64,000 bases of DNA from Azolla caroliniana (Eukaryota; Plantae; Polypodiophyta): NCBI GenBank assembly GCA_043228905.1, contig JBHGNT010000002.1:15872001-15936000 (forward strand), in the 5' to 3' direction. The first letter of the stretch is position 1, and every line of letters begins with the position of its first letter. Positions 2,586 through 30,930 of the stretch are shown here, piece after piece. The position numbers were made by a program, and so were the translations under genes. The notes beneath the pieces were generated by a model. That model worked only from the letters and a program-made list of their open reading frames with translations, made no database searches and was not told the origin of the DNA.

Positions 2586-2753
2586 AAAAGAGTTTCTTAT
2601 TTCATAAAGCAACAATACAACAACCAACCTTACAAAAAGGTTACAAGGTCAATATATATAGTGACCGACTTAGGGCAACTACCCTTTATGCTAATTACAT
2701 AAATGGCCCAAAGGGATAGTGTGAATACGTCCATTATACACATGTATTCGACA
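1..2753 (-). mobile_element. Ty1/copia element, family A: 5' LTR, leader, gag-protease-integrase; runs off the window start
   Basis: LTR 2460-2753 (TG...CA); tRNA-iMet PBS TGGTATCAGAGC at 2446-2457 (-); gag ATG at 1782; CNYCKKPGH zinc knuckle, WLLDSGAS protease and integrase core on - strand; similar to 15731-21237. Confidence 0.92.
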
Positions 2754-2885
2754 GCAACCCTCTACATGCACTAAATGCCATTATGACCTAGGTTTATTTA
2801 TTTTCATTTTTACAAGTATTCGTGAAATGTGTGTGGATCCTCAATTTTTGACTTTTTCTCGTACTAGACATGCCACATCATGACA

Positions 2886-6252: not shown

Positions 6253-7090
6253 TGTCGTGAAGATCCGTCACTACTCGCAGATCGTGAGGCGGAACCGCCG
6301 GGGTTCTGGACCGGAAGGACTTGAAGTTGGCGCAAGCTTTGGCGAGAAAGTACTTAAGCTAGATTGAAAGAGAGAGAGAGCTTGAGATAGAATAGAATGC
6401 TTGACTTTAGATTGAGAGAGATTAAGATTGAACTCTTGATTTTAGATTTTAAGAAACAAGTTACACGATCAATTCGATAATAAATTCTCTTCTTCTTAAT
6501 TTCATCACAAAAAAAAAGCCTAACCCTTCTTCTTTTTCATCCCTTCTTTTATAGATGCTCTCATGCATATGATGCATGTGAGGGTACAAGACATGCATAA
6601 AATGCATGTTCGCCATTTGGCGCTCATGTATTACATGTGGTGCATGATAACCATGTCACTCATTTTAGCTCTCATGTATGAGAATTTACATGTAAAAGTA
6701 CAATGACAGAAATATAAATTCAACTAAATGTCATGGCTTAGTGGTAAGCCTACTAACTCTTAACTAGGAGGTGCAAGGTTCGAATCTTCACTTGCCCTCC
6801 TTATTTATTTATTAATTTGGTCGCTGGATGTCGGATGCCGGTCGCCGTCGTTTGCCGGATGATGCTGGTTCACCGTCGCCGGCCCGTCGAATGTTGATAC
6901 CGCCGGATCATCGGCTCCGTCGGATGTCGATACCGCTGGATCACCGATCGCCGGTTACCGTCTAGTTCCGTTTTGGTTGGCCAAAACCTTTACGAGTGGC
7001 TAGGCCACCTCCACTCTTAGTTCAAGTTACCTTGAACTCTCTATGCTCCACACATAAACACAAAGATAATAGGTTTTGCTCTACCTTATA
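6253..7090 (-). mobile_element. Solo-LTR-like insertion in the gypsy gag
   Basis: gag frame breaks at TGTCGTG (6253); non-coding; TATA-like motif on - strand near 6550; right end (7054 or 7090) uncertain; no matching TSD. Confidence 0.55.
6729..6797 (+). other. Degenerate tRNA-like sequence (Lys-CTT-like) with Pol III A and B boxes, inside an LTR
   Basis: A box TGGCTTAGTGG 6734-6744; anticodon-loop-like ACTCTTAA 6756-6763; B box GGTTCGAATC 6777-6786; acceptor stem does not pair. Confidence 0.5.
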
Positions 7091-10000
7091 TATGATGAGA
7101 GCCGTATTTGTCGTCGTCTTGAGAGGAAGTCAATGAACAAATATACGAGTCACACAGGTGAGTCTTTTGATGTTGTTGAAGTCCATACCAACCACTTAAG
7201 TTCGTGTGAATGCACTTTTCCTTCACATTTACTTGGACCTAATGATTTTACTCCGAGCAGTCAGGTATATCAATGGAACACAAGCACATTTCTTGTTTGA
7301 TTCCGGTAGTTCTCACAATTTTCTTAATGATCACTTTGTGCAGCAAATGGAACTCCACATAAACGCAAGTGATCATATCTATCAAGTTCACATGGCAAAA
7401 TGGAAGCCTTCAATACATTAGTGGCATTGTTTGTCAACTACCAGTTCAAATAGATACCTATTTGGAGAAGCTTGATTTTCATGCTATGAAACTACAATCC
7501 GCAGATGTCATTTTAGGATACCCTTGGTTTTTTAATAAAAACCCTTCTTTATCCATTGATTAGGTTAATCACTCAATCACATTTGAACTTAATAATTGTA
7601 AACATTTTATTCAATGTTCCAAACTTCCTTCTCGTTCACTTGTGTCTTCTAAATCTTTAAGTGAGTATTCTAGTTCATTAATTTATTCGTGTGTAATTGA
7701 TCCTGCGCTTCAATTTTATTATTTTAATATTGACGCCACACCATTACCACATTATGAACAACGATTACTCAACTCTATTTTAGATGATTTTCAAGACGTG
7801 TTTCCTAACGAATTGCCACCAAAACGTAATGTGGACCATCAAATTGAACTTATCCCCAGTGCTGCTCTTGTGAGCATTCCACCTTACCAACTTAGTCGAT
7901 TAGAAGAGGATAAAATCGCTAAATAACTTAAGGAATACTTGAGTCTAGGCCACATTAGGTATAATAAATCACCTTGGGGTGTGCCAGTTCTATTAGTAAA
8001 GAAGAAGGAAGGTTCATGGCAGATGTGTATCAATTATCACCGTTTGAATAAAATGACAATTAAAAATGCATATCCATTACCTCGTGCCGATGATTTGATT
8101 CATCTTTTGCATGGGGATTGATATTTTACGAAAATTGACTTACGAACAGGTTATCATCAGATTCGCATTGTCGACGAGGATATTCCTAAAACCGCTTTTC
8201 GTACACGCTATGGCCATTATGAGTTTTTATTCACGCCTTTCGGGTTTACTAATGCTCCAGCCACATTCCAACAAGCGATGAATGACGTTTTACAAGATCA
8301 ACTCGGTGATTTTGTTGTCATCTTCTTCGATGATATTTTGATATATAGCCATACCTTGCAAGATCATGTTCAACATGTTCGATTTGTTTTACAAAAGTTG
8401 TGTGACAACTCTTTCTATGCAAAACATTCACATGTGATTTTTTCCAAAAATTTATTGTGTACCTAGGTCATTTAATTACGGAAAATGGTGTTGAAATTGA
8501 ACATTCTCATATTGAAAAGGTTAAACTTTGGCCCATTCCTCATAATATTCGTGAATTGTGATCATTCTTAGGGTTTGTTGGATTTTTACGAAAATCAATT
8601 CGTAACTATTCCAAATTGACTATGCCATTAACTAACCTTTTAAAAGGTCATCCACGTAAGTCTGTCAAACCAATTGCATGGAATGAATAACTTGACAAAT
8701 CATTTGAGACACTCAAAGAGCATGTGTGTCAGGCTCCTACTCTTCTATTACCGGACCCTTCTAAGCTAATCGAAACCAAGGCTAATGATTATGTTGTTGG
8801 TGTCGTTCCTTATCAAGGCGTTCACCCTATTGCTTTTGTAAGTAAGAAGCTTGATGTTGCTCAATCTCGGTATTCGGTTCAAGAGAAAGAGTTGTTTGCG
8901 GTAATACATGCACTTAAAACATGGAGGCACTATCTCTATGGAAATAAATTTGTGGTTACAGTTGACCATCAATCGTTAAAGTATTTTTGTGACCAGCCAA
9001 ATCTTGTTGGTCGTAAAGGCCGTTGGGATGACCTTATGCAAGATTTTGATTTTTCCATACGGTATCGCGAGGGTTCTATGAACACTGTTGTGGATGCTCT
9101 TAGTCACATTAAAGAAGTTAACATGCTTAGCTTCACAGAAATAAATTCTGATCTTTTAGATCACCTTTGAGGGAAATACCTTGATGACAATTATTTTTCG
9201 AAATACTGGACGAAAGCTGAATCTGGTTTAGATGTCGATACTAGCACCCTACCCTCGAAGGTGACCTTTCACATTACAAACGGTTTGCTCTACCCCAGTG
9301 GAAAGGTCTGTGTTCCAAATTTACCAAGCGTAAAACAGAAAATTCTTCATGAATGTCATGATGCACCATCTGTTGGTCATCCTACAATACAACGCACACT
9401 CATTCTCATCTCGAGTACTTTTTTCTGGCCTAAGATGCGCTCTGGCATGCATAAATACGTAGCTCAATGCTTACAATGTCATATTAATAAGTCAGAACGA
9501 CTTAAAGCTGTGGGTCTTTTACATCCCTGAGATATTCCCAACAACAAATGGGAAAGTATCTTGATGGATTTTATTGTTAGTTTACCTCGTACACAGAGGG
9601 GTCATAATGCCATTTGGGTTGTCGTTGACAGACTAACAAAATTGGCGAGATTTATTCCTACCAAAACCACGGTAACCGCTCAACAATTGGCTTATCAATT
9701 TATTGATGAGTTATTTTGCTTTTATGGATTACCGATGGATATTGTTGGAGATCGAGATTCCAAGTTTACTAGTGACTTTTGGACTCAGGTCTTTAAGAAA
9801 CTAGAAACTACGTTGAGCATGAGTTCCGCAAATCATCCTAAGCCTAATGGACAAACTAAACGAGTTAATCAAATTATTGAGGACATGCTTCGAGCTTATG
9901 TAGCAAAAACCCCTTCTAAGAGGGAGCAATACCTTCCTATCTTAGAATTTGCCTATAATAGCTCTAAACATACATCCAGTGGATATAGTCCTTTTATGTT

Positions 10001-13000
10001 GATGTATGGTTTTCAGCCACGTGCCCCAGTTGATGTCACGATTCATCAAGATACATTAGACAGTACACGCAATTTTTTGCAAGACATGAACCAAATGTTG
10101 CATATTGCCAAAGAGAATGTCAAGACGGCTCAAGATCGTGCTCGATTTTATACTGATTAGGATAGACATCCTCCTGCATTTACTATTGGTCAAAAAGTTT
10201 TTCTGCGTGTCCCTACTGACTCTACGTCATTGTCTACGGGCACGTGCACTAAGTTAGCCCCACGATATTGTGGCCCATTTGAGATCCTTAAGCGGATTGG
10301 GTCATCTGCTTATCACCTTGCCCTACCCCGTAACGTTGGTATTCATCTTGTTTTTCATGCCAGTCGTCTAAAACCATTTTTAGGCTCTGGTGATAACACC
10401 ATGACAATCCAAGATCTTGTAACATTAGAGGATTTTTCGTAAAAACCTCATGTTCCTGAACAAATTCTTGATTCACATACTAAATGTTTACATTCTAAAG
10501 AGATTAGGCTATTCAAGATCAAATGGATGGATAAAGCTATTGATGATGCCACATGGGAACGCGAGCATACTCTTAAGGCACAATTTCCTCACTTTATATT
10601 GCAAGAGTGCAATCTTTTGAAGTAGGGGAGTATGTTATGTACACATAACGTTGGTGAGGGTAGGTCACTAATGTTTACATTAGTGAAGGGACTAATGATT
10701 GGATAGAAGGAATGATAGGTGCATGCACTATCATGATTTGGACAACCAATGAATGGAAAGCCTTTTAGAAAGGCACATCTATTCAAGGGGCCTAGGAAAA
10801 GGTATAAATATGAGGCTTAGCTACCCTCATAAGGACATCACGTCGGAAGACAGCTGTCTTAGACACCGGTGGTGCGGGCTAGGCTTTCTTCTCGATGATC
10901 GTTTTTATCTCTTCCAAGGTATTAGTCTAGATCATAGGTCAGTGGTAGGTTGGCTATGTCTAGATCATAGGTCGGGGGTGGTCGGGTTTTTCTATCCAAT
11001 CTATTTTCCTTCCTTTACTTTACTTTGGTCTATTGATTAGTAATAGACTCTTAACAAGTTGTATATGTGTCATGACAATTTTGGACTACTCGAAGGCGAC
11101 AAAAACTATTAGGAACATACAAGAGCTTCTTAAAGAATAATAATCCATCATGACATTCGAATTGTCGATAATCCGTACCTGGTGTTGCGACTGTGAACAA
11201 GACGCCCGAGAGGGATCAATTTGTGCTAGAATGGCTTGAGCGAAAGCATCTGTCTTCAAGTCCTCACGTAGGGTATCGATATTGTGGGAATCCAATGGCA
11301 TATCGAAAACCTGCGTTGCTTGCAGTCGTGCCGGTTCCAAGATTACTTGCTTTTGGTTATCGAATGTTGGCTCACTACAACGCAGTGCTAGATACGAGCA
11401 CCGATAACGCATCTGCCTTCCCTTGCTACTTCCCGAGACAATATGTAATTTTGATGTCGAAACAAGTGAGGAATTGGGCCCACCGAACTTGGCGTCGATT
11501 TAATACACAAGCATTCTGGAAGTAGTCAAGATTTTTGTGATCACTAAATACGGTGACTTGATGAGAAGATCCCTTTAGGAAATGCCTCCATTGCGTAAAA
11601 GAGTCCACTATTGCTAATAGCTTTTTATAGTGAATTGCATAGTTGATTTCGGCGCGTTAAACTTGCATGAGTGGAAAACCACATGACGTAGCTTTTCATC
11701 ATCGCCTTGTTGTGAAAGAATGCTACCCAAGGCGAAATCCAACGCGTCTGCCTCAATGATGAATGGTTTTGCCAGATCAACATGAGCTAGAATAGGAGCT
11801 GATGTAAATGCCTTCTTAAGAATCTCAAAAGCCATGTCCACTTCTTTAGACCAAACAAACGACTGCCCCTTGTTGGTAAGGTGTGTGAGAGGCAAAATAA
11901 GCTTTGAGTAATCTTGTATAAACTTGTGGTAGAAATCAGCAAAGCCTAAAAAGCATTGCACATCTCGCAATGAACGTGGAGTCTGCAACTCTACCACAGT
12001 TTTGACCTTAGCTGGATCCATAGAGATGTCTTCCGAGGAGATGACATAGCCCAGAAATTCCACCTGGTTGCACTCGAAGCTACATTTTTCTAGTTCTGCA
12101 TAAAGACCATGTTCTTGAAGCCGTTTTAGTACTAACAGTACATGAGAATCATGCTCATCTTGGTTCTTCGAATAAACCATTAGATCATCCAAATGGATAA
12201 TGAAACAAACATCCAAGAGATCTCGGAATATATACTATTTGCCATGTGTTGGAAGACTGTTGGTGCATTAGTGAGACCGAATGGCATGACCATATACTCG
12301 GAGTGCCCATATCTGGTGCGGAACGCGGTCTTCCATTCATCTCCTGATCAAATCCATACGAGGTTATATGTTCCTCATAAGTCGATCTTTGTGACGAACC
12401 TTGCACCATTGATCTGTTCTAAAAGACTTGAGATAAGGGGAAGTGCATACCTATTCCTAATGGTGACCTTATTCAAGCCGTGATAGTCTACGACGAGACG
12501 AAGTGATCCATCTTTTTTCTTGACGAAGAAAATGGGTGCGCCGACTAGAGATTTCGAATGTCGAATGAACCGTTTGCCAAATTCTCCTCTTTATAGGCTC
12601 GAAGGACTTCTAGCTCGGTTGATGACAAATTGTAGATCGGTCCCCATGGTGGCTCTTTTCCCAGTTGTGAATCAATGGGGCAATCATACAGTCGATGGTC
12701 AGGAAGCGTATTGGATTGTACCTTATCGAACACATTGGTATACTAACGATAGTTCTCTAGAAGTTGAACTGTGGATTCCTCTTTAGTAGTGTTGGAAGGT
12801 TTTACTGATACAACTAAGACAAACATTGCTTCCTTGCGTCCTTCCTCACGCAATTGATGTAGGGAAATGGTTGCAATCTTATAGGTAGATCCTCGCATTT
12901 GTCGATACCAAATTTCTCTTGTTCTCCAAACTATGTTTGGGTTATGTAATTCGAACCATGGTAACCCCAAGACAATTGGATGATCTAGACTACTAATTAT

Positions 13001-15199
13001 ATTAAATGATACTACATACACCAAGTTATCTAGGACAACTTGAATCGACTTTGACTCCTCTATGATTTTTCTAGAAGCAATGGGACGACCATCAATAACT
13101 ACTACAGATGTTGGGCAAGAAAGTTTTATTAGGGATATCCGATGAGCTTGGGCAAAATTCCTATCCATGAAGCAAGAGTTGGCTCCGGAATCTAAGAGTG
13201 CTAAGACATGTATTGGAGGAGTACTTTTAGTACCAACCATTACTTGTGCTAAGAACACTTTGCTAACTTGCTTAGAGGAAATTGAACCACTAATGGCTAC
13301 ACAGATCTAGACTTAATCATTTAACTCTTATTCTAGTTGCCTAAGGATTTCAAATTTGTTTGAAAGGCTTGGGCTATTAGGACTATCAGTCACACCTAGA
13401 GAAATATACTCGGGTTTAGTACTATTAGTACTAGCGGTTATTTGACTTACCTGCCTTCTTGGCTGATGGGGACAATTCACTGCAATATGCCTTGGTCCAC
13501 CGCAATAAAGACATAATCGATTTGCTCGGCGCTACTGCTTTTCTTCTTCCGATAGTGGTCTGCAACGACGTGTGGTGTCAATTTCCATTGGAGTCGGAGT
13601 ATTTGTTGGAGACGTATTAAACGACTCCCTTGGGAAATGCTTTGCTACAACTGAAGCATAGGTGGGCTCCGATCTTCCCCTCGGCATTTGAAATTGGCAT
13701 TCCGAACGTCGTTTGAAGAGGCGGTTACCGCATCGTACTACGCAATTGATTGCTTCTGTCAATGACTTTGGTTCTTCGAGGAAGGTCAAGAGTAAATCCT
13801 TGACATCATTACGTAGGCCATAACGAAATTGCTCCATTAATGCTTGGTCATCCCAAGGGATATTGGACGCGAGTAGACGGAAATGCAGCGTATGTGGAGG
13901 CTGGACGGTCACCTTGACGTAATCGTCGAATTTTGTTGATTGTTCTCCTTATGCTATCAGTATCTCTCCAAAATAGGCTTTAAACTCACTTAACACGTTA
14001 ACGTTCAAAAGTGGAAGGATCACGCATTCCACTTTTAGATTCCCTTTGTAGCCACACAATTTTAGCCTGTTGTGAAATCGGACGTGCACCAGTATCACAT
14101 GATCAACCAAAGATGGTGAATTTATTGATTTATTAATCCGATGCATCTCTATACCTAGAGAACATGCTATTTATTGGGCAAAATATAAATGTATGAGATT
14201 TATTTTTGCAATGTTTACAAATTTAGGGTTGGGGTTTACCGCGCATTCATTTGATACAAATTAGTTATTTGAGGAAAGCATTAACAAATAGGGATTCCAT
14301 TTTCGTGAGATGTAAAGTGCAAAGGTTTACAATGGTTAATCTTTCCAAGACACGTGTATATGCTATTTGAGAAATTGATATTTACATATTATTGAATACA
14401 ATACATCGCAATTAATCCTTAGTAAACATCATTAGGATATAATACCAAATGTATATGTTCATGACAACACATGAAAATTAGAAGTAGAAAACGTACTCAT
14501 AACTATTAGTTTGCATGACATTAGACATAAAAGAATATACCCAAAACATATATGACAATTATTAAGGCATAGGCAGTGCTAAACTTTTGGGTGCCAAAAT
14601 AGAGACAACACTACAGTAGTAACGTTGAAGCATGTATTAAAATTTTCATTTTATTGTCTACACATAAACACTAAATCAAGAAGTTAAACACATATATACA
14701 AATGAAGTACTAATAATCTATACATAACACACATTGATAGCCCTCCATACATCCAGTCCAGACAACCATCAACCATAGAAACATGATTGTTGTTGTATAA
14801 TCCCCTTCAATAAAGCAAATACTCCCCAATATCTACAAATGCCTCCTTCAATCCCACTATATGTTATGTATCATAAGAATTTATCATAGTTATTCTATAA
14901 GTATAATAAATTCAAAAAGTGACTGACAATAACAAATATTGGTATAAGTTTTACAAACACAATTGATGGGTAAATATGAAGGATAAACATACATTTTGTT
15001 TGATCTTAACTATAAACGAAAATGATGGTCCAACGAATTTAATAGATATGTGCAACAAGATATAAACATATCAACACATTAATTAAAACATAATATAACA
15101 CCATATAAACACATAGATTGGATCATATTAAGAAATAGAATTGATTAAAAGATAGTTGATCAAAAGTAAAAACATCAAAAGTATTTTTATAAAGTCTAA

Positions 15200-18100
15200 C
15201 TACATCGCTAGAAGAGTATCCATATCATTGGTTTCATCATCAATCGGTGAACTATCATCCACATTCAGCGCAGTAGTATCCACTCCAGATAGACTGGCTA
15301 CTTTGGGGTCCTTTATTAAATCATCGTCAAGCTGTACGAGTTCCCCAGGTTCACCAGCCAAAGGAGGGATCGGTTCACGAGACGTAGGCTAGAAACGTTC
15401 AGTATCTGCTATATGCTTGGCCCCTACCTCCTCGTCTTGATCGGGGCATTCCCAAAGTGCTCGAAGCCTCATGTTGATGAAGTTCACCTACTCCTCGTCT
15501 TTCTCCAATGCAAACGAATTTCAGAAAAGCTTCAAAGCACATGCCGAAGTGGTCCCTAAACACCATTAATAAGAAATAATGAGTTTTATAATAGGTCTGA
15601 ATATATATAAACCTTCAACACATTGGGAAAATTAATCGAACATATACATGTGCCAGAAAACAAGTCCAATATCCAGTCATCTTCATTCAAGAACATCTCC
15701 ACAAGGACAATCATTAAACGTTGTGGCTTCTGTTGGGGAAGAAAGTCGTCAATGCGGAAGAACAAACAACATTTGTGATGGTGAAGAACCTCCAATGTAT
15801 GCAATGAGCAATATACAAAGAGAGAGAGAGAGATAGGCACAAAAGAAACGTTATATTTCTCAATATCAACAGTTACAAAATGACAGCCAACAACCTTTAC
15901 TAAAGGTTACAAAGTCACTGTATATAGTGACTAACCTAGGGTAACTGCCCTTTATGCTATTTACAGAAATAGCCCAAACTTGGACTGTCCATAAAGGAGA
16001 GTGTGAATACGGCCATTATACACTCATATTTGACACTCCCCCGTAATGGGTGTATACATGGGTTATACTAAAGTTACAAGTATGTACAAGGTTGTTGGAC
16101 AGATCAGTTTTGTTCGAGTCGGCAGGTTCTTAAGACTGAAGCCCGAACCGGCTAAAGCCCGTATCGGAATAGCTAAAGTTGATCCTCAAAGAACCGATGT
16201 CTATTGTTCGAAACCATCCTGTGTTGTGTGACCGCCTTTAACGATCCACCGAAAGGCACCGGAAACGATCCACCGAAAGACACTTGGTCATTCCATTTGC
16301 GACATTATCGGTTGTGGATATTTTCTCGAGACCGATTTTCCCTGAAATGATGCAGTCCCGAACAAAGTGATATCGAACGTCGATATGCTTGGAGGCATTG
16401 TGGTGAACCAGATTCTTTGACAAAGCAACAACACCCTAACTGTCATTGTAGACAACTGTAGTCGAGTCGAGGTCGACCTGTCGAAACGTCTGCGCCAGCC
16501 GACCGAGCCATAAAGCTTCTTTTGCCGCGTCGGACGCAACTACATATACCGTTTCGGTCGTTGAGGTGGTTGTGCACTCCTAAAGTTTCGACTTCCACAA
16601 GAATGCTCCATTGCCGAATTTGAAACAATATCTGGTTGTTGATTTCCGATTGTCCACGTAGCTGATGAAGTCCGAGTCAGTGTAACCGACTACGCCTGAG
16701 GTTGAGTTCGGGCCAAAAAGAATGTCATGGTCTTTTGTGCCAGCTAGATATCTGAACACATGCTTGACTGCGTTCCAGTGTGATCGGCCTGGGTTGTGCA
16801 TGAATTTGCTGACGACTCCTACGGCGTGAGAAATATCAGGCCATGTCGTGACCATCGCGTACATAAGGGAGCCGATTGTCGGTGCATACGGTACCAACTT
16901 CATATCTTCCCCCCCCGGACTGGATGTCGGGCACTCTCGTTGAGACAGCCAAAGGTTATTGGGGAGCGGGGTCGAAGCATACTTGGCCGAGTGCATGTTG
17001 AAGTGTTCCAAGACACGTCCGATATAGTCGGTTTGAGACAAGAAAAGTTGTCATTTATCGCGATGCCGACTAAACTTCATACCAAGTATGTGTCTTGCCG
17101 AACCGAGGTCCTTTATGGCAAACTTCAACCTCAGTTTCCGAACGAGTTCGGTGAGCTCTCTGGCATGTCGGCCGGAGAGTAACATGTCGTCCACGTAAAT
17201 GATGAGGAAGACGGGAGACCCTTCTTGAGTTGTTTTAGTGAAGAGACAATGGTCCTCATCGCTCTTGGAGAAGCCGACCGACTGGATGAAGTCATCGAAC
17301 TTTTTGTACCATTGTCGGGGTGCCTGTATCAGGCCGTATAAACTCTTCCTGAGTCGGCAGACTAGATGTTCCTGGCCAGATGCCACAAAGCCTTTCGACT
17401 GCTCCATATAGATTTCCTCCTGTAGGTCACCGTGGAGGAATGCCATTTTTACATCTAGCTGAATCAACTCCAAGTTGTCGGCGGCCACGACGCCGAGCAT
17501 GAAACGAAGGGTTGTCATTTTCACCACTGGTGACAAGATTTCGTCGAAGTCGACGCCATATTCCTGTCGAAATCCCTTCGCAACTAATCGGGCCTTGTAC
17601 TTTGGGTTGGTCGAGTCGGACATCTCATTTAATCGATAGACCCACTTACACGGAAGAGCACGTCGATTCTCCAGTAATTCGACCAAATCCCAAGTCTTGT
17701 TTGCGCGAATGGAGTGCATTTCCAACTCCATTGCCAGATGCCAGGTGGCTGAGTCGGCAGATGCCGATGCTTCTTCGTAAGACATCGGTTCGCCCGCGTC
17801 GGTAAAGAAAACTCCGGGATAGTACCTGGCCGGAGGTTGCGACAATCTCTCAGATCTTCGAGGTATGACTGGACTAGTCACACCGGGTATAGATGTTGGA
17901 TGGTTGGAAGCCGAGTCGCTCGGCTGTGTTGAATCGGTGGATTCAATGTGGGAGGTGTCGGTTACCCGTGAAACCGATCTCGTGTTGTGGGTTGGGCCTT
18001 CATGAAAGGTTGGCACTTCGGAGAATATTACCCTTCGGACTTCAATAGGCCTTTTGGCTGTTTTATGCATAGCCAACTCGTTGAACACGACGTCCGAACT

Positions 18101-21005
18101 TTGGACGATTTGTTTGTGCTCGGAGTCCCAAAGTTGGTATCCAATCTCGCCGTCGGGTCCATATCCAAGGAAAACGCATTTCCTTGATCTTGGTTCGAGT
18201 TTCCGGCGATTGTCTTTCAGTATGAGGGCATACGCCTCGCAGCCAAAGATCCTCAGCTTGTCATAATTCGGCTTACTGCCGGTCCATGTTTCCTGAGGTA
18301 TTTTAAGTCCTAGAGGTCTACTTGGCAACATATTTATTATGTGTATTGCTGTAAGTAGAGCCTTCGCCCAAAAGCCATCTGACAGTCCTGAGTGTTGGAG
18401 CATGGATACTATGCGTTCTTGAATCGTCCAATTAATGCGTTCTGCAATTCCGCTCTCCTCCGGACTATACGGTGCCATATATTCACATCAAATGCCGCGT
18501 TCCCAGCAAAACTTGACGAATTCTTCAGACTTGAATTCTCCTCCGTTGTCGGTTCGAAGACATTTCAGTTTCCGACCGGTTTGATTTTCGACCATTGCAA
18601 GCCATTCGGAGAAGATCAAGAACACCCGATCTTTGGTTCTGATGGGGTAAGCCCACACCTTCCGAGTCGAGTCGTCAATAAAACTGACGAAGTACGAAGC
18701 ACCGCCAAGAAACTAATGTGGCATCGGGCCACAGACGTCCGAGTGGACCAAATCGAGAGGACTCGATTCTCTTGGTGCTGATGTCGAGTGTGATGCGGCT
18801 ACCTGTTTGCCGTACTGGCAATGCTCGCAAAATTGGTGATCCGAGAAGGAGAGTTTGGGGATGTAACCGGCTCTGAATAGGTGCGTTATGCCAGCCTTGC
18901 TGAGGTGTCCAAGTCATCCGTGCCATAACGATGACACGGGGATATCAACCAAAAATAAGTCACCCTCTTTGATTGTGACATATAAAGGGTACAAAGATTG
19001 TACCTTTGGTCCTCGAGCAAGCAGGAGGTTCCCTTTGTGGAGTGTCCACCCTCCTGATGAGAACCCAACATGGATGTCGTCTTCGTCAAGTTGTCCGACT
19101 GAAATCAAGGGTGTTGAAAGCTTAGGAACGTGTCGGACGTTCTGTAGTACGAGTGTAGAGCCACCCGGAAAGTAAAGCTCTACAGTGCCGATTCCGATTA
19201 TGGCACAGTGTTGCGAGTTCCCGACTCGAACTAAGTCGGAGTGCTGGTTCGAGTATTGCCGAAACTGAGATCAGTGAGGTGTCACATGATATGATGCGCC
19301 CGAGTCCAGGAGCCATGTGCTCGATTCCTCAGTCGTAAGTAGAACTTCTGATTCGACTGGGTTCTCTATGCACAGTATGTTCGGGTTGGTCGTCAAAATT
19401 TCGGCTGAAGAGCCGACGTAGTTGACTTCCTCATGCCGGCTACTCCTCTGATCCACACTCTGAGCTTTGTCCGTTTTTGCTTTGAGTGCCCGATAGTCGG
19501 CTTTGATGTGTCTCGGTTTCTTGCAGTAGTTGCAGATTCCGATGTCCCGGGACTTGCTCCGGTTTTGCTGATTGTTCGATGGTCGGGAAGAACTTCTTCC
19601 CCGGTTGTTTGATCGGTCGGTCGAACCTTGTACTACGTAAGCTTCATCTGTCGAGTCTTTGGCGAAATACTTTCTCCAAGCTGCATCAATCAGGATTGCG
19701 CTCGTGACTTCAGTGTACTTAACGGCAGCTGTTGAAGCATTGCACAAGGTTGTAACGACAGTTTCCCATGAAGAGGGGAACCTACTCATGAGTATCATTG
19801 CTCTGAGTTCATCCTTGATTGTCGTCCCCTGAGACGAGATTTGGGAGCTTATGCTTTCGTACTCGTTGAGGTGTGCCTGAACCGAATCGGATTCTTTCAT
19901 CTGCAAGTTGTAGAGGTGCCAGATCAGATACATCTTCGTCGCGGCGACATTCTTTTCATAAGTTTCCAACAGTGTTTTCCATAGTTCAAAAGTTGTCGAG
20001 CACGATTGCACTGTGAATTACACTAACTCCGATAGGTGCATTCGAATCGTGGCACGGACGATTCTGTCCAGCTTTAGCCATCTGTTTTCCTTGTATGCTT
20101 CTGGAGGATTTTCATTCTCAATCGGGTCTATCTGACCCTTGACTATGAGATAGTTCTGCATTTGTTCCTTCCAAAAGTTGAAGTTCGAACCGTCGAACCT
20201 CCTTACACTCATCTCCGATGAACTGGATGTTGATGCCATCTGCTTCAGTTTCAGTTGGTAAGACTCGGTTCGAAGTTGACTACGAACCTTAGTGGGGTGC
20301 AGTCAGTTGGCTCACCCGATATCGTTCTAGTCGGTTTTGAACCCGAGTCGGTTTGGTTTCGGATACTTGTTGCCGAACTTGCTCGGAGTGACTCCGGTAA
20401 CTTGAGGGACAGAACCGGCTGGTCTTCCCGAATGTTGCCAAGTCGGAGTGAGCCCGGTTAGCTTCTAATTGTATGCCGAATACCAATTATAGGAAACCGA
20501 TTGTTTGGGCCGACTTTGCTTCGGATGACTGCAGCGATGAGAGGGACGGATCCAACTGATTTTCCCGAATGTCGATTAGCCGAATGAAGAAAAAATTTGG
20601 TTGTTGCCAGGAGACCAATCTGCAGCGGGTGGTTACAACGAGTGAATAGTGTCCGGTGATATATTCGGATGTCATTTAACTGAATGAAGCACAATTGGGT
20701 CGGGTGTTGCACAGGGAGCTCGCCTCAAGTGGTTACAATCACAGGAACAGAGTATAGCCGGCTAGCTTACTCCAATTAGTGATTTAACACAGTGAGATGC
20801 AAACTTCTTGTTTATCTTCTCTCTTCTCTGTTCTTCAAGAAGTTACAAAAAACAAAATGTTGTTGTGTATGATGACGACCGGCAGCGGGTTGAAGAACCT
20901 CCAGCGCTCTGATACCAAATATTGGGGAACAAGGTCGTCAGTGTGGAAGAACAAACAACATTTGTTATGGTGAAGAACCTCCAACGTATGTGAATGAGCA
21001 ATATA

Positions 21006-21041
<36 letters not shown>

Positions 21042-23666
21042 CAAAAGAAATGTTATATTTCTCAATATCAACAGTTACAAAATGACAGCCAACAACCTTT
21101 ACTAAAGGTTACAAAGTCACTATATATAGTGACTATCCTAGGGCAACTGCCCTTTATGCTATTTACAGAAATAACCCAAACATGGGATGTCCATAAACGA
21201 CAGTGTCAATACGGCCATTATACACTCGTATTCGATAGCTTCTGGTAGGGATTCACAAGCCCGCGCTCAATCGTGGTCACATGTCGAAGCTTCCATGTCA
21301 CAGCTGGATATACGAGCAGGTTTGAGCATCCCACCTCATTCGAATGCTCCTTGATTCTTTGCTTCTTAATCTCATTGTAATAACCAACTATAATTACTCC
21401 ATTGCATTAACGAACCGAAAAGTTGGTTCCCTATTTACGTTGGTTTTAATCATGTTCATTGACAAAAGAAGGTATAAGCAGTTTAAATTACAATATATAA
21501 TTCCTATTGAAATAGTGCACTTTCGATATAATCCTTACCAAGAAAGGTTCTCTATTCCATGGCAATGAGACCTCAACACTTGAGCCACGGAATATCCCTG
21601 ATCCATGCTATGAAAGATTACAATCCTCCACAAGGAAGTGGTGGTCAAGTCGGCGAAATCTTTTACCATTTTTTCCAATTGCTTGAACCTAAAAGGTTCG
21701 TCATCGTAAATCGATCCAACCATAAGAAAACCGTAAGGAATATCGGCTACCATTAACATATACTCTTTCTTTGGCAGCTTCTGGATCATGTCAACCACAT
21801 CACCACAATAAACATTGTAGTACAGATCTCTAGTGATGTCTTTTTTGTGGGTTGATCTTCTTGAAGGTGTCGTCGTCTTCCACCTCAAATGCTCTTACCA
21901 AGCGTTGATCCTTCTCTTTTCTGGCCCTTTCAAGATGTGCAAGAAAGGATGTTGGGAAGTCATGTGTATCCTTAATTTCACCCGGCCTCTAACTCCAACA
22001 TGGTTTCTAAAAAAAACAAGACATAAACAAAGTTATTGTCGGTACACGGGATGGACCGCCACAAATTGATCAGACAAAGAGTTATACTCACCCAATCCTT
22101 AAATTGATCAGACGAAGACGTTATCGGATATTCTTCAGTCACTTGTTTCCACGATAAGCAACCTAGTTTCTTCATCATCACTTCTTGTATTTTCATATAG
22201 ACTTTGTGGCTGAAAATTTATAGACCAACAATAGAAATCATGTCTTAACACAAGATAAACCATGAAATATTTAGTAAGAACTTACTTGTTGAACTCAATG
22301 ACCATTTCCTCTAAGCTCATCTCCTTTGCTAGAACTCTTCAAAGCACAGATACAAGAAGCTACTCATCTTTGATCCCTTGCATTGCCCTCCATAAAGACA
22401 GCTTCATATCATCTTCCGCTTCCTCAATGGTAAGCTCGATCTTCTTGGTAAGCTCGATCTTTGTGGTGAAAAAATCTAATGCGTTCGATGGACGACATCT
22501 TCTATCGGTAGTCATTGTCATTATTGTGGTCCCATGCTAACAACTTTGCCTCCTCAGTTGTTAGCCCCACATAAATTTTGCATTCCGCATATTTGAAGAA
22601 GAAAGTTGTGGGATGCTCGCGAACTAATTGTCGTCTTGCCTCCACCAAGTGCGATCCGCCAATTACAAAATAATTGTATTGGTCATGATTCTTAACATCA
22701 AAATCCTCTATCTTAGAGCACTCAAGAGGATCCACCATTACTATAAAAGGCACGACCGTTGCATGTGGATTTATTTTCATCTTCTTCTTTAAGTTTTGGA
22801 CGTGCAGCTTATGTGGTTCTCTGATCTCCAAAGGACGACATCTTGTATTCTCATCCAGAGGGGGGCGATGAATATGGTTTATCGGAAGGTTAAAAACTTG
22901 ACCCTTCCGCACAAGCTTTCAATGGATGATGTCCCTTCTTATTTTATTTAGTTCCGATGACAACACACCAGACGCAAGCTCTGCTCATGGTGTACATCGA
23001 GCCTCATTATCTTCTGTTGAACTCGATGACTTAGAATCTAACATTCTTGTCACCTTCTTTTTTTGAGACCTGGACTGCACAACAGATTTCTTTATTGGTG
23101 CTTTAACAGGCGATAAAGAGCTTGCCTTCAATTTAACATGGCCTTGAATGCATGGCCTCAATATTGTTAGCAGGTTGCTACTTGTCTCAATAGCATTCCG
23201 GAAGAATTCTGGCCCGCATGAATCCTTCAACAAGTAGTCTTCGGAGACGATGATCTTACGAACTCCTTTTGTACAATTGACTAACACAATCAAATTAGTT
23301 GAGTCCGCGTCTTCATAGTCAAGCTGCAAAATTTTGTCATAGCTAAATGACCGATCTTGGGCAAACATCCCACATCCAGCAAGGCTGGTAACTAAGAGTA
23401 CTACCTTCTTTTTCGATTCGACATATTGCAATGCCCACTCGTGTCCAGTTAAGTCTTTGTCCAGCTGGTCTTCAGCTCCTCCAGCCGTGACAGATGTCTT
23501 CTGACTAACTTCGTCAGACGGCTTCCTCACGACTTCATCCTCAAACACGAGTTTCTTTCCCTTTTGCGGATACGTGACAATAGGGATCTTTGTTGTCTCT
23601 AGAGGAGAGCTTTGAAACTTAATCCGAATTCTTTTGAGTGGCTTCTCCTCCATAGGATCAGTCGAC
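15200..23666 (-). pseudogene. Intron-containing ParB/Srx-like domain + beta-class N4-C/N6-A DNA methyltransferase fusion gene, disrupted
   Basis: Exons ~23666-22286, 22209-22092, 22006-21539, 21451-21238 joined to 15725-15648, and 15555-15200. Motifs: YFVIGGSH (ParB-like); YCGDVVDMIQKLP...VADIPYG (motif IV); NPYQKP (motif X); WILDLFSGTxTTSACALKLFxNSFALEKD (motifs I-II). Has stops, frameshifts and a copia insertion. Confidence 0.85.
15731..21237 (-). mobile_element. Full-length Ty1/copia element, family A, inserted in the methyltransferase gene
   Basis: LTRs 15731-16035 and 20920-21237; TSD GCTTC at 15726-15730 and 21238-21242; PBS 20906-20917; PPT 16036-16042; gag-pol 20239-16238 with YVDDML RT motif, broken by stops. 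Confidence 0.96.
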
Positions 23667-24347
23667 CTACATGAAATAATAGAACAATGAACCTAAACCT
23701 ACATTCTCTCAAATAATAATGTATTGTCAGATGGTAAGGTTTGGAAAATGAGAATTCAAAAAATAGTTTGGCCTCATTAAGCTCTTGCCTAACAACTTGT
23801 GTAAGGGACATACTTAAAGGGTGTACTAATAAGTTCGAGAACCTAGTAAGAGGCACTGGAAAGGGAGTTCAGATAACGGAATAGTGAAACCTAAACCTAT
23901 ATCCTCCTAGCTGGCAATGGTGGTAAGGTTGTAAGGTGTATGGTAATGTTTTGCCCTCACTTCAGTCTTACAATATGCACATTCCTAGTAAGTGAAGGTG
24001 GTATGGTGTGCCAAATTAGCAATTGGGCCTCATTTCAGTGTTACAATAAGCACATTCCTAGTAAGTGGTGTAAAGGACTTGTGGGATGGGGGAAACAGGG
24101 TTAGAAACCTAAGAACTTGATTACAGGGCAAGATAAATGTATCTCTAAGTTCTCTAAACCCTCAAATTACTAGAATTTACACATCCCCATCAGTGTCCAG
24201 ATCTCAGATCGCAGGCCAAATTCTACTGTATTTTGACCTTAATTCAGAATTTCGTTTCTACTTCTTATTTTTAGCCTAATGTTTGCTTTCGCGTTTCTAT
24301 GTACATTCATAGTGTGGTCTAACTGCCCTAGTGGCTCTGTGACCCTC

Positions 24348-24690
24348 AACTCGATACGGTATATCGAGTTGGGGGTCCCAACTCTTTATAGTGTATCGAG
24401 TTCTGGTGTTAGGAGCCTCAACTCGATACGGCGTATCGAGTTGGGGATCACAACTCAATACGCCATATCGAGTTGAGGCCCTAATACCAGGAACTCGATA
24501 TGATGTATCGAGTTCTTACACTTAACTCGATACATCATATCGAGTTCTAGCCCTTAGGTCAAGAACTCCATATGATGTATCGTGTTAAGTGTCAAAACTC
24601 GATACCTCGTATCGAGTTCTTGCTCTTGGAGCCACAACTCGATACATCGTATCGAGTTGTGACCTTCAAGTTGATACATTGTATCGAGTA
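24348..24690. repeat. Array of ten 23-bp palindromes AACTCGATA-N5-TATCGAGTT with alternating 9/17-bp spacers
   Basis: Copies start at 24348, 24380, 24420, 24452, 24492, 24524, 24564, 24596, 24636 and 24668. Confidence 0.95.
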
Positions 24691-24701
24691 GGGGTCACAA
24701 G

Positions 24702-25802
24702 TGTTACATCTCATATGGTGGTGAGCGAAATGCCAAAGTGTTAGCACCATTAAATAATATAAGTTTCAACCACGTATTCTTAATAATAATAAATGATCAT
24801 AGTGACTGTACATTATTATATGCAAAGCAGTATTCATCCTCCCCCCAATGGGAGCCTGAAGGCGGGTGTCAGTTTCTACTTCATATGCCTTCTACTTTTG
24901 TTTATGGTGCAGGACAAATGCCGATTGAGACTAAAAAAGTGGTCACCAATGTACTAGCTAATAATCAAAAGGATGTTTGGATGCAAGCGCTACAAGACAA
25001 ATGCAAGAACATTGACAATGCGAAGAAGTATGTTGGGGAACAAGACACGTCATGGTGGGATGTGTTCTTTATAGATCAAGAACAAATTGTTGACAATTGT
25101 GTCCTTGGTACTTGGACCATGCAAATCCCCTTCACATGGAATATACAACAGTGTCGTAATTCTCAGACTTCTCCTCTTGCAACTAATGTGATTAATGATA
25201 GCTTGCTCAATCTACCACAAAGGGACATATATGTTGGACCCAGGCTAACGAAAATAGCGGAAACGAGGTGGCAAGGAAACTTGCAAGAATTGGAGGTGGG
25301 TATGTTAGTTGCTACACCTGCTGATGATAATGAGCTGGGACATCAATTTTGGATTGGTAAGGTTTTAGATGTGGTGATGCATGAGAACCAAAGACAAATC
25401 TAGTCTATAAAGGTGCATTGGTACAACACTAGAAGTAGAAATGCCTTTATCGGCAAGTATGCATTAAAGATGATGGAATGTCCATGGTCAAGGGGGATTA
25501 GAAAGAGGAAAAGAAATATTTGTAGCACTTCATGCCTAGACATTGGTGACGTAGATATTATTGTTTACGACTTCACACGAACAAAAGTTGGACATCTCAA
25601 GAAGTCTACAATAGATATCATCAAGGAGAAATTACCTATTCTACAAGGGGTCTCAAGTCGAAGGCAAACAAGATCGTCAACACATAACATGGAATGTCAA
25701 CATCTAGTTTTAGATGAAGACAATGCCTTAATAGGTACATCCGAAGATGACGAGGAACAATCCACATTGTATATTAGTTATAGTAGCGACTCTGGATCAT
25801 GA
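24702..25802 (+). pseudogene. 5'-truncated ORF, probably the C-terminal half of the element's transposase, ending in a Tudor/SH3-like barrel
   Basis: ORFs 24738-25403 and 25413-25802 are one frame split by a TAG; HVF...YAKQYSSSPQWEP segment and VGMLVA...FWIGKV...VHWY barrel; acidic tail; no DDE core visible; lies inside the TIRs. Confidence 0.5.
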
Positions 25803-27626
25803 TACGAGTGATTTTTGTAAATGTTACACTCGTCAATGTAATTTTGGTATCTATTGTAAGAGAGTGCCATTTGTAATACTCGAAAGATGCAAAAGTTATG
25901 TTTAGAAATATTATTGCTTTGTACAAACATTATTTGTTATAAAATACATTACTTCTTGACTTCTCAGTGATAGTGAACATTGTACCATTTGGATTATAGC
26001 ATAATTTTAACGTTTTTTCAAGTTTAGGAAATGATGAATTTTTTAGCTTTTCCAACAGTATTTTGAGAACACGTGATACTGGCATCATTATGTTTTGTGA
26101 ATAGAGCACCTAAACCCCAAAATTAGAAGGAATATTCCTTATTCTTCCATTTTTGCGCGATCCTTCCACTTCTAAACGCGAATGTGTTACTTATAAACTC
26201 TTCAAAATTGTTTAGTAATGGAGATTCCTTTTCTAACAACGGAGCGAACCATGCCAAAGCTAAGCCACTTAACAACGTGCCTACTAGACCCACTCGTGAT
26301 GCATCGGTGGGATATCGGGAAGGATGCCTTTGAATGACTAATTGTACCTGATTAAGGAATCCTCTAAACTGTGATCGCATTCCATCGTATTTCATAGGAA
26401 GGCCGAACTTGGATTCTTTATGAATCCCTTGCGTACTTGGTGCTTGTTGTTGCAACGCTACAATGGTCGCTTCGAGTTGTTGCACGTGTAACGCTAGTTC
26501 CCCATGTTGTTGTTGCGTCTGGTGCTTCTTATATATATGTACAGAACAATAGAATGCAACACATGCTTTGTGCCAGACTGAACGGACTAGATTACAACAA
26601 CTGTTTTCCACCAAATCCACGTCTCGGGTTGGACGCACCGAGTGGGGTCTTTGAAAAACTCCTCGAAATTATGCAGTAGAGGAGAGTTTGTCTTTAGTAA
26701 TGGAGCAAACCGTGACAACGTTATGCTAGTCAATAAGGTGCCCACTAACCCGACTCGTGATGCATCTGTCGGATAACGCGCGGGATGCATTTGAATTACC
26801 AACCACATTTGATTCAAGAAACCTGAAATGCGCCCTCGAACCATCAAATTTAGCTGGGAGGCTGATTTTGGGCTCCTTGATAATTCCTTGACCTTCGACT
26901 CTTTGTTGTTGTAAAACTACGATTGTCGATTCTAATTGTTGCATCCGTCGCGTAAACTCCTCTTTGTTGTTGTTGCTTCTCCATACTAACCTTTTGTATA
27001 TCTCCAAGAAGACGTTGATTCTATAATTCAAGAGATGCAAACTTGGATTTACGATCCTCCATTTCTGCAACAAGGGTGAGATATTCTTCTAAGTTGATGG
27101 CGGCCATGGTATCATGATGTTTATAAAGGAGGATAAAGGAGAGAGAGATAAATTTGAATCAAACTGTTAGAACCAAGAGAAAAGATAGAGTGACAAAAGA
27201 AAGATATAAAGAGATCACAAGAAGAGAGGAATGAAATGATAAGAGAAGAATGAATGTATTAGAATGAGAATGGATACAAGATAGGTGATGAGAGCTTAAG
27301 ACTGGTGTTTATTCGAATTGGTTTGAGAATAATTGTATGTTTATATTTATAGGTTCCTGTAGAATAGCCTAGAGATTTCTATAATGTTCTAGAATGTTCT
27401 AGACCTAGAATATTCTAAGATGTTCTAGGATATTCTAGAATGTGCTAGGATATTCTAGAATGCTCTAGAATGTTCCAGAGTATTTACAATAATTAGTGTA
27501 TTATAAGAAGTAGCTTTATCATCTTATATGATCGTAGGCTATTTTAATGGGTAGGTTCTTAATCATGTATTACAAGGGCTTGGGTTCAAAACCAAGTGAA
27601 GCCATGATGTTCATGTATTCATGACT

Positions 27627-29566: not shown

Positions 29567-30930
29567 TTAATATGGGGAAGGCCCATGTGGCACTCCTTCA
29601 TCAACTAATCTCGCCTCGCCAACCACATTATAACGAGAGCCTTTCAGGGGGAAGTAACCAATGGCGAAAAATACTGCGTTGTCCTTGCTTGTGGAGACTT
29701 TCACCCACATAAAACGAGCTTCTGGGTTTGTGCTCAGTATTTCTATCCTATTATGTAGCTCCCTCCGAAACAATATTGCGACACCTCTAGATCCCCTAGT
29801 AGTGCATCGACGTGAGGTTTGTTTAAAAGTCGACTCCCAACGAAATCCTTCGACTCGTGGGAGTCCCCTATTTGGGCTTTGGTGTGTTTCTACTAGGCAA
29901 ACTATATCTGATTCCTTTAATATCTCCTCTAGGCGGCCGGGGTGTGTCCAGAGTGTGCCGTTACAATTCCGTAAGGTCATCCTAAGTGTGTTTTCTGGCA
30001 CATGGGCCACACGCCGTCAATTAGTAGTGCGATCATTTATGATCACTCGCCCATCTCAATAAAAGGCATGATGCCCTTCTTTACGAGCTTGCATAACCTT
30101 TGGCATACAACTCTTGCGATGCTCAATTTGCATCTTGGTGAGGTCTTCATCGAGATAGATAGGGTCCCCACCCAATCCTCGAAGAATTGGTCTCTTCTTA
30201 AAGAAAGTGATTCTAGAGTCTAAGTCTTTAAATTGAAGAACTAAGGCTCTCTTCCTGGTTGTGTCGCGTCTGGCCCTCCAAGCTTTGGTGATAGGTAGGG
30301 TCGTTGTGTACCCTAACATTTTCCCGAGTGTTTGTGCATCCTCGTCCGGGGATGCACCTTCCTTGAGCCCAGTGACACACACATTTAGGCATCGGGCCTG
30401 ACGCATTTTCTCCTTTTCGAGGGTGGTATTAACAATATTTTCATCTTTTATTTCTTTTTTAATGTTTCTTTTAACCACATCTACCCAACCTGTTTTTGCT
30501 AACTCTATGTTATTTTTAACCTCCTCTTTAACTTTTTTGATCTCATCTTTTATATCCTCTATGGAGGATATTTCACCGTCCTCTCGGGATACCTCGATGT
30601 CATTAAGTTGTTGTTTGAGGTTTGTGTTTTCCTCTTTAAATTTTTTCTATTTCGGCCTTGAGGGCATCTTTTTCCTCTCTATCTTTTTTCTTGTGGGTTT
30701 CGGCGTCTTTCACCCATTTTTTCATATCCATCTCTATTTTTGTGAAACGGTTAAACATATCTAAAAAGTCCTCCTTAGTTATAGCCTCGTCTTGTGTATC
30801 CTTATGTTCCTTTCGTTTACACATTGTAGTGTCAATAAGAGAAAAAGATAAAATAAATGGGTTCGAGACTTAGCCGAGTTTGTGTGTATGTCGCAGTCAC
30901 ATCGACATTTTGCACGCGACGAGCACGCTA
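29567..30930 (-). mobile_element. Non-LTR retrotransposon (LINE) 5' half: ORF1 and start of ORF2 AP endonuclease
   Basis: ORF1 30824-30056: coiled coil, NVCVTGLKE, IYLDEDLT; ORF2 30010-29567: NCNG, DIVCLVETH, GSRGVAILF. Confidence 0.8.

Follow-up and report, generated by a model that had tools for sequence, protein, structure and literature searches.

The stretch of DNA considered here, referred to as the window, comprises 64,000 nucleotides of Azolla caroliniana (contig JBHGNT010000002.1, positions 15,872,001 to 15,936,000, forward strand). At positions 13992..26188 it contains a DNA transposon with terminal inverted repeats (TIRs) and the remains of two divergent genes: a transposase with a DUF7869 domain, presumably the Sola transposase domain, on the plus strand, and a fusion of a ParB/Srx-fold domain with an amino-methyltransferase on the minus strand. 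Related loci were obtained in a scan of metagenome contigs, where 80 of the 161 matching stretches were kept as family loci (L001-L080); one of these, L004, was used for mapping the parts of the window copy.

The TIR at the methyltransferase end (13992..14025, plus strand, AACAC...) and that at the transposase end (26155..26188, minus strand, ...GTGTT) pair at 28 of 34 positions, the runner-up 34-nt inverted match within the whole window reaching 20/34, and they match the L004 TIR at 30/34 and 32/34 positions, respectively. Both ends are flanked by a 4-bp target-site duplication, ACTT (13988..13991 and 26189..26192, plus strand). Contigs that reach position 26189 and run directly into the far flank (at least 16 in run X1, at least 18 in X2 and at least 10 in X3) demonstrate that the empty target site exists, whereas none is among the matches listed for run X14, so that three of four runs show it. 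The empty site consists of uninterrupted copies of the host Ty3/gypsy-type gag, the 5′ part of which lies at 26193..26668 (minus strand; DUF4939 above the Pfam cut-off, Ty3_capsid weak) and continues at 13987-13532. Alternative ends (a 2-bp CT duplication with TAACAC) fit the window alone and were ruled out by the base just outside AACAC, which varies among the termini (A 11, T 8, G 3, C 1). Without 15731-21242, the element measures 6,685 bp. The imperfect 34-bp TIRs, the ACTT duplication and a length of ~6.7 kb without the nested copia had been proposed in a sequence-only reading of this DNA, and all three hold. The same reading expected excision to restore the gag frame; removal of the element does rejoin the gag sequence, but the joined flanks give eight in-frame codons and then a new frame break.

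Within these ends, the methyltransferase gene (minus strand) was divided into predicted exons according to the L004 model. Exon 1 (22286..23666) encodes a small β domain, the ParB/Srx-fold domain (22505-22918) and a helical region, as assigned from the fold of the relative P0002, and has lost 257 nt and acquired five stops. Exon 2 (22092..22209) lacks 21 nt and aligns with the next part of the Ceratopteris protein P0020. Exon 3 (21539..22006), termed the DIPY exon, carries the catalytic-type motif ADIPYG (D codon starting at 21744) together with a 1-nt insertion and one stop. Exon 4 is interrupted by a copia element: its 5′ part (21243..21451) has a 1-nt deletion and an acceptor changed from AG to AT, and its truncated 3′ part (15648..15730, KP...DLFSG) matches N6_N4_Mtase with E 6e-5 and 23.5 bits, below the Pfam cut-off of 26.7. 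Exon 5 (15200..15555) contains the end of the S-adenosylmethionine (SAM)-binding region and an acidic tail, with three premature stops. The interrupting Ty1/copia retrotransposon (15731..21237, minus strand) is bordered by a GCTTC duplication (15726-15730 and 21238-21242), has long terminal repeats (LTRs) identical at 281/304 positions (92%) and is missing from L004; it is a later insertion outside the transposon family.

Beyond exon 1 lies the phased palindrome array announced in the sequence-only reading, which is real: 24347..24691 holds 10 units TCGAT-N7-ATCGA with alternating 32/40-bp spacing, 8 of them with at most one mismatch, the in-phase units spanning 24351-24687. It is followed at 24692..24698 by the junction of a ~2.2-kb internal deletion (L004 1483-3686), which contigs of X1 and X3 cross with 0 and 6 differences, respectively. 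Lost with it are the N-terminus and catalytic core of the transposase, the region of the divergent promoter and the methyltransferase gene's ATG mini-exon. The remaining transposase sequence (24698..25802, plus strand; 92% DNA identity to L004; homologs carry PF25273) is the C-terminal third, with one internal stop and without any of the three conserved aspartate motifs, and it found no match in Atlas. The two genes called in the sequence-only reading are therefore genuine in part. The ParB-like and N6_N4_Mtase portions are real, but they belong to a pseudogene with nine premature stops in L004's frame, the 257-nt deletion, two 1-nt indels, a lost acceptor and copia in exon 4; the transposase-like open reading frame (ORF) is a real transposase part, but lacks the catalytic residues. 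The window copy is dead: it is internally deleted, its methyltransferase gene is a pseudogene and it cannot act by itself.

The window copy and L004 differ unevenly along their length. The transposase end (24698-26179) is 92% identical, with a synonymous divergence (dS) of 0.16, and the methyltransferase gene (21243-23686) is 86-87% identical, with dS of 0.26-0.55. In addition, ~270 nt in the methyltransferase 3′ region (window 14817-15019) are absent from L004, and the 3′ part of window intron 1 does not align with it. The window copy may be a recombinant or a member of a sister subfamily.

The transposon family and its transposase

Matches to the family are abundant, at 3,800-5,600 contigs in each of three runs (contig depths are not copy numbers), and the ParB-like piece has 36 relatives at 62-94% identity, one of which is named Ceratopteris richardii. 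Whole elements measure 7.7-8.6 kb, with L075 shorter at 6.0 kb. Other loci yielded 23 termini with 23 different flanks, 19 reading AACAC and 4 a one- or two-base variant; given the variable outer base, they set AACAC as the terminus and 4 bp as the length of the duplication, and they represent many insertions. TIRs occur at both ends in L004 (one end cut), L035, L043 and L075, while L046 was excluded from this two-ended count and retained among the 23 termini and in the trees. In L046 (4040-6332), the methyltransferase-side TIR is followed directly by the transposase 3′ part and a second TIR, an arrangement produced by tandem or nested copies or by an assembly chimera.

The gene pair is constant. 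A divergent DUF7869 transposase lies upstream of ParB in all 12 loci with at least 3.5 kb there, and L075 (at least 3.3 kb upstream) adds a thirteenth; the divergent order seen in the window is thus a head-to-head pair in 13/13 testable loci. Downstream, the DIPY exon follows ParB in 43 of the 44 loci with at least 1.7 kb there. The transposase and ParB identities correlate (Spearman 0.83, 91 non-independent pairs), and three identical groups emerge from both trees (branches inside the ParB tree are weakly supported). We regard it as highly probable that these loci represent a multi-copy mobile family with a stable, selected cargo. Mobility in many copies, as anticipated in the sequence-only reading, is borne out by the 80 loci and by termini each in a flank of its own, and the single occurrence of TIRs and gene that would have spoken against it is contradicted by the same loci and termini.

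Transposase ORFs of 873-916 aa, measured stop-to-stop, are present in 8 of 14 loci examined, and the L004 ORF has one stop near its N-terminus. Three motifs are invariant, IDGMD (12/12), QLDNT (13/13) and GHTHDHID (14/14), and D383, D464 and D503-506 constitute a putative DDD catalytic triad. The single-sequence fold model of the transposase has low confidence (pLDDT 34). A profile of nine transposases found no match among PDB sequences, and neither the transposase nor exon 1 matched PHROGs. The C-terminal domain of the transposase looks BAH-like to us; a chromatin-reader function for it found no support in Pfam and was rejected.

The ParB-fold methyltransferase cargo

In L004, the cargo gene comprises a TATA box, an 11-codon ATG mini-exon and five more exons, all introns being GT-AG, and encodes a single open 975-aa frame with the landmarks GGSH (348), DIPY (692), QKP (830) and DLFSGTG (852). 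Exons 2-5 are likewise open with GT-AG introns in 14/14 further loci, picked for closeness and coverage among the 43 with the DIPY exon. The N6_N4_Mtase domain (PF01555) is recognized in L004 exons 4-5 with 42.1 bits against the cut-off of 26.7. The order DIPY-QKP-DLFSGTG in the L004 protein is that of β-class amino-methyltransferases, in which the catalytic D/S-P-P-Y-type motif precedes the SAM-binding F-x-G-x-G motif. Across loci, ADIPYG is retained in 44/47, PYQKP in 38/40 and DLFSG in 38/39. The median ratio of nonsynonymous to synonymous substitution (dN/dS) is 0.041 and 0.048 on the two main methyltransferase exons, 0.074 on ParB and 0.07-0.16 on the transposase, as computed from pairs with dS 0.1-1.5 only (3 to 109 per segment; the most distant subfamilies are unrepresented). 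Purifying selection acts on both genes.

The best solved relatives of the methyltransferase, by weak matches, are RsrI and CcrM, both of which we take to be adenine methylases, and its phage matches bear the name adenine-specific methyltransferase. Relatives of the enzyme match PHROG 67 and 498 (E to 1e-27). The catalytic motif takes the forms DIPY, DVPY, DAPY, DLPY or DFPY instead of SPPY, and D-x-P-Y is found in the family and in 13/17 distant relatives scanned. Because of D-x-P-Y and the nearest solved relatives RsrI and CcrM, adenine appears the most likely target, and we lean toward it, without great confidence, rather than toward N4-cytosine. The best phage matches reach ~24% identity with E 1e-3; no close phage donor was found among them, and recent horizontal transfer from phage was ruled out. 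Since these matches are remote, the prokaryotic origin of the methyltransferase appears to be ancient.

The N-terminal half of the fusion was assigned by structure. The exon 1 model of P0002 (moderate confidence) has Noc/ParB as top Foldseek matches (E 9e-6) and compares with VIA PadC at Z 9.4 (root-mean-square deviation, rmsd, 2.5 over 95 residues) and with pNOB8 ParB at Z 8.0 over 204 residues. In this moderate-confidence model, the helical region following the ParB domain aligns loosely with pNOB8 ParB, KorB and Spo0J (Z 4.6-8.3). The N-terminal small β domain gave weak PH-like/SANTA matches alone (Z 3.6-5.8) and was left unnamed. In Atlas, P0020 returned sub-threshold ParB rows only. The GGSH motif is present in 76/81 ParB sequences, with no arginine after it.

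Regarding expression, one 345-nt contig of run X15 (depth 3.6; that the run is RNA is a guess) skips exactly the predicted 93-nt last intron, and another X15 contig ends at the predicted exon 3 donor, which gives a weak hint of transcription.

The intron palindromes and host cytosine methylation

Across the family, the array unit is TCGATR-N5-YATCGA. Allowing up to one mismatch, the 60 kb that lie upstream of ParB contain 206 units and the remaining 276 kb contain 10, and exact arms are separated by a 7-nt spacer 140 times and by other spacers of 3-12 nt 4 times. Unit spacings cluster at 31-33, 40-43, 50-54, 63-64 and 71-73 bp, corresponding to whole helical turns, with a phase concentration R of 0.76 at 10.3-10.4 bp (the units are not independent). 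Even subfamilies with seemingly unrelated non-coding DNA around it retain the palindrome core. The array lies between the mini-exon donor and exon 1, that is, in predicted intron 1, in 10 of the 11 loci with the mini-exon pattern; a TATA box, ATG mini-exon and GT donor stand just upstream of it in 10 loci, and a frame-keeping splice through ParB is present in 9/11 mini-exon loci.

Two further sequence elements were observed in this region. A conserved motif, usually CTGTACGGACA, occurs within ~45 nt past the first intron's donor across diverged subfamilies (e.g., L001 3711-3740, L004 3585-3615 and nine other loci); it belonged to the mini-exon search pattern. The zone from the transposase start to the methyltransferase TATA box contains repeats of a second palindrome, AACY-N2-RGTT (often TAACYRYRGTTA): 27 hits within 2.7 kb (limits set by eye), in 10/12 loci, against 7 in the other 92 kb. 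Examples are L001 3452-3548, L004 3326-3422, L014 3193-3344 and L043 6332-6452; the zone is deleted from the window copy. In the shared promoter, this palindrome may serve as a site for the transposase or a host factor.

Comparison of the window with L004 shows C-to-T changes at 56/303 CG, 41/221 CHG and 71/1554 CHH positions, against A/T transitions at 146/3261. The CG/CHG excess is the signature of host 5-methylcytosine (5mC), and the host silences these elements. CpGs of the window array changed less (2/40 vs 56/303, p 0.04); protection of the array CpGs from 5mC is not established by this difference, because units had been chosen for their match and subfamily divergence contributes to the comparator. 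In addition, C-to-T variants within the arm CpG favor the outer cytosine (25 units in 19 loci) over the inner one (7 units in 6 loci), these counts not being independent; the asymmetry may reflect a binding constraint or strand-specific protection.

Proposed function, related systems and distribution

To account for the association of array and enzyme, we propose that the helical region after the ParB domain would recognize the palindrome, by analogy with ParB-parS, so that the fusion protein would sit as phased dimers on the palindromes, which recur at whole helical turns in the predicted first intron of its gene. The fused enzyme, if active, would then methylate the nearby DNA of the element, probably to N6-methyladenine (6mA), and this mark would keep the shared divergent promoter usable under host 5mC silencing. 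Binding of the array combined with methylation in cis is, in our judgment, probable. For the full sequence of steps, including 6mA and continued promoter use under 5mC, we estimate the chances as about even. We infer an anti-silencing effect rather than self-repression.

Several observations count against this proposal. The loci are assemblies of high-copy repeats, possibly consensus-like, which inflates apparent intactness. Copies with new 4-bp duplications and intact genes, which the sequence-only reading suggested looking for, are partly in evidence: intact ORFs exist, and L035 has the duplication TGTT, but flanks mismatch in L043 and L075, leaving a matching duplication in 2/4 two-ended elements (window ACTT, L035 TGTT); the mismatches possibly stem from collapsed-repeat contigs. 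The array is not universal, with at least 1 unit in 11/17 loci having at least 1.5 kb of upstream zone and at least 3 units in 9, and L059 and L060, with full-length transposase ORFs, carry a single variant palindrome each. C-to-T variants at array CpGs persist in the consensus contigs (32/206 units). CTP-binding ParB proteins carry an arginine in the motif corresponding to GGSH(S), which makes clamp-like spreading by a protein without it doubtful. The 345-nt X15 contig also lacks 38 nt of exon 4, and hence is not a normal transcript of an intact copy. As to chemistry, D-x-P-Y leaves adenine and cytosine undivided, and the structural and phage matches are weak (~24% identity). Finally, an operator inside the gene's own first intron suits self-repression equally well.

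This last point leads to the rival in which the protein, placed on the intron-1 palindromes ~70-170 bp past the start-exon donor, represses the divergent promoter, through its binding or through methylation there, as a self-limiting switch that caps methyltransferase and transposase. Bacterial methyltransferases can be autoregulated; in 10 loci the array comes right after the TATA box and start exon, with a phasing that would allow a cooperative nucleoprotein block. KorB, a repressor of the ParB family, can be aligned with the helical region (Z 8.3, rmsd 10.7), and the palindrome core stays nearly constant at 72-94% ParB identity, with no diversification of the type seen in targets of the transposon protein VANC. 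For pure repression, however, a catalytically conserved methyltransferase (dN/dS ~0.04) is needless, and the family is abundant, with thousands of contigs per run; we consider such a switch unlikely.

A second rival accepts the remaining steps of the anti-silencing proposal and replaces 6mA by N4-methylcytosine (4mC) on the palindrome CpG or nearby cytosines, where it would occupy the target base of host 5mC. PF01555 spans both chemistries, each conserved arm holds a CpG, C-to-T variants are rarer at the inner cytosine of that CpG (a difference that binding constraints alone may explain), and the available text of PMC12477816 leaves N4C versus N6A undecided for a related element as well. Against it stand the D-x-P-Y motif of the family and its distant relatives, which differs from the TSPPY of Marchantia 4mC enzymes as given in bioRxiv 10.1101/2021.02.12.428880, and the nearest solved and phage relatives, named or assumed to be adenine methylases. 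We rate a 4mC mark as rather improbable.

The protein could alternatively serve transposition, by condensing or tethering the excised element on the array or by marking the donor ends and thereby coupling their cleavage to replication, in the manner of Dam methylation in certain bacterial insertion sequences. The ParB/Noc fold and the co-divergence with the transposase fit such a role, but the palindrome is not found at the TIRs and is confined to the intron zone apart from the 10 units in 276 kb, and the GATC of the window TIR is not kept in other subfamilies. Moreover, the window copy, a deletion derivative without the start exon, has matching ends and a duplication, in whatever order deletion and insertion took place, and we hold a transposition role to be very unlikely. 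A one-off Pack-type capture of a host or bacterial gene without a role for the element, to which the window copy as a non-autonomous pseudogene carrier bears some resemblance, is almost certainly wrong, because instead of sporadic, decaying host-gene cargo the same pair recurs in all testable loci across subfamilies with transposase C-terminal parts down to 48% identical, under strong purifying selection, with congruent groupings and neighboring Riccia locus tags.

The sequence-only reading did not recognize the element as a described family; its design, however, was already published in 2025 for algae, namely for Sola1-1_Ec32 of Ectocarpus (PMC12477816) and, in parts, for red-algal Plavaka elements (bioRxiv 10.1101/2025.02.11.637652). 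According to the available text of PMC12477816, Sola1-1_Ec32 spans 21.5 kb, with 282-bp TIRs, a 4-bp duplication and AACCG termini, and carries opposite its transposase a 1104-aa ParB-like + N4C/N6A methyltransferase protein, for which the authors suggest binding to, and modification of, the element that encodes it. The moss element Sola1-1_PPa is listed as the best blastp hit of Sola1-1_Ec32. The family in the window, itself likely Sola-like, has in common with it, as judged from the description, a 4-bp duplication, AAC termini and an opposite-strand ParB-methyltransferase fusion. The present family differs in its land-plant hosts, ~8 kb length, 34-bp TIRs, AACAC ends and 975-aa protein, and the main text of PMC12477816 mentions no palindrome array. 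The Bostrychia Plavaka (EnSpm) elements with PAG2/PAG3, as described in the part of the preprint available, have a PF01555-SET gene, a ParB-2OG-oxygenase gene and inverted-repeat arrays. Like this family, they encode a PF01555 methylase and a ParB-like protein and contain tandem inverted repeats, for which a role as binding sites of the ParB-like protein is proposed there; they differ in their transposase superfamily, in having methylase and ParB in separate genes and in their length of 17-19 kb. No land-plant description of such elements was found in the literature searched; Repbase, the 2009 Sola paper, Iyer et al. 2011 (cited in PMC12477816) and some supplements lay outside it and could mention them. 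The general design is thus known. Its land-plant lineage, the compactness of the elements and the conservation of an operator in intron 1 appeared in none of the literature searched and seem to be new.

Sola elements are summarized in PMC10741241 and PMC3845634, as far as available, as having DDD motifs, TIRs, a 4-bp duplication and a size of 2-9 kb, with reports from moss. The family shares the TIRs, the 4-bp duplication and the size, has putative DDD-type motifs and adds a second gene and the array; by described traits it is likely Sola-like. It is not filed as Sola1, because the AWWT target preference given for that group in PMC3845634 is seen in 2/23 flanks and the window ACTT is not AWWT. 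Sola1-1_Ec32 itself is listed in PMC12477816 only as biased towards targets ending in A.

Other systems resemble the family in single respects, as far as the available texts go. VANC of Arabidopsis VANDAL induces loss of DNA methylation, with targets that vary between related elements (PMC5735166); both VANC and the present protein are transposon accessory proteins predicted to act via tandem non-coding motifs, whereas here a methyltransferase domain is present and the core palindrome is conserved across subfamilies. Retrotransposons carrying DAM, a prokaryote-like adenine methyltransferase, are described with raised 6mA and transcription (bioRxiv 10.64898/2026.05.21.726589), and the main text of that preprint, which uses the word plant once (for VANDAL), contains neither ParB nor Sola. 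VANC and the DAM retrotransposons would be functional analogues. Marchantia MpDN4MT1 (TSPPY, no extra domains) and rotifer N4CMT (a chromodomain fusion) are host genes that write 4mC (bioRxiv 10.1101/2021.02.12.428880, PMC8885841). They share with this cargo a prokaryote-type amino-methyltransferase in a eukaryote; unlike them, the cargo is transposon-borne and has D-x-P-Y and a ParB fold. Phage methyltransferases of the ParB-terminase locus were transferred to algae and fungi (PMC4738411), and the available text of that source lists no such land-plant clade and few N6A methyltransferases in land plants. The present methyltransferase has in common with them the transfer to eukaryotes and the PHROG 67/498 matches, with no close donor found.

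A HMMER search with the DIPY exon returned 108 relatives, and the names drawn from 30 clusters include Diphasiastrum, Ginkgo, Chara, Riccia and Adiantum; the transposase relatives with names belong to Ceratopteris, Riccia and Adiantum. Ceratopteris carries both genes (KP509_18G011500, KP509_1Z236600 and paralogs), and the nearest relatives with a name are from this fern. The Chara protein combines GGGH motifs with the methylase motifs. The locus tags of the Riccia methylase (R1sor_020633) and of a Riccia DUF7869 protein (R1sor_020635) differ by two, and their contigs are listed with equal lengths; the pair is presumably adjacent. Identity falls with host distance, from 77% (ParB) and 62% (transposase) in Ceratopteris to 36-50% (transposase) in Riccia, 38% in Ginkgo and 29% (DIPY exon) in Chara, and therefore fits old vertical descent. 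The spread of amino-methyltransferases among plants by horizontal transfer, which the sequence-only reading had envisaged, finds no support in these values. An ancient streptophyte transposon lineage (Chara, liverworts, lycophytes, ferns, Ginkgo), in which a ParB-like reader at a parS-like array in the first intron and a fused writer of sequence-targeted 6mA over the shared promoter hold off host 5mC, would combine these observations; we offer it tentatively, as a possibility on the less probable side.

The family bears on whether land plants have enzyme-written 6mA or 4mC beyond Marchantia sperm, and transposons known to modify their own chromatin are few. Self-marking was no more than a proposal in the algal reports, whereas the system here is compact, abundant, apparently intact in many copies and has a precise candidate site, TCGATR-N5-YATCGA. 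With Ceratopteris carrying both genes, the proposal is directly testable. If the streptophyte lineage does run such a 6mA circuit, vascular plants would have a defined enzyme behind DNA methylation other than 5mC, VANC would have a counterpart that acts as a writer, and the abundance of the family in large fern genomes would be easier to explain. For epigenetic work, a site-directed amino-methyltransferase functioning in plant nuclei would be a useful tool as well.

Two of the relatives have unusual gene models. In Diphasiastrum, the annotated cytochrome P450 model P0136 (O6H91_23G046600) ends in the family's DIPY exon and is probably an annotation fusion with an inserted element. The Chara model P0160 (CBR_g41648) contains two tandem ParB-methyltransferase units in 1,825 aa, the second apparently complete.

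The other parts of the window (1-13900 and 27000-64000) consist of nested LTR retrotransposons. Copia copies related to the nested one are indicated by a 91% inverted match between 16253-17576 and 45714-47037, a young copia with near-identical LTRs lies at ~48600-54050, and a chromodomain-bearing gypsy piece occupies 40366-40839. Two ORFs, at 34727-35422 (plus strand, 231 aa) and 30056-30646 (minus strand, 196 aa), have no Pfam match and lie in compositionally skewed DNA.

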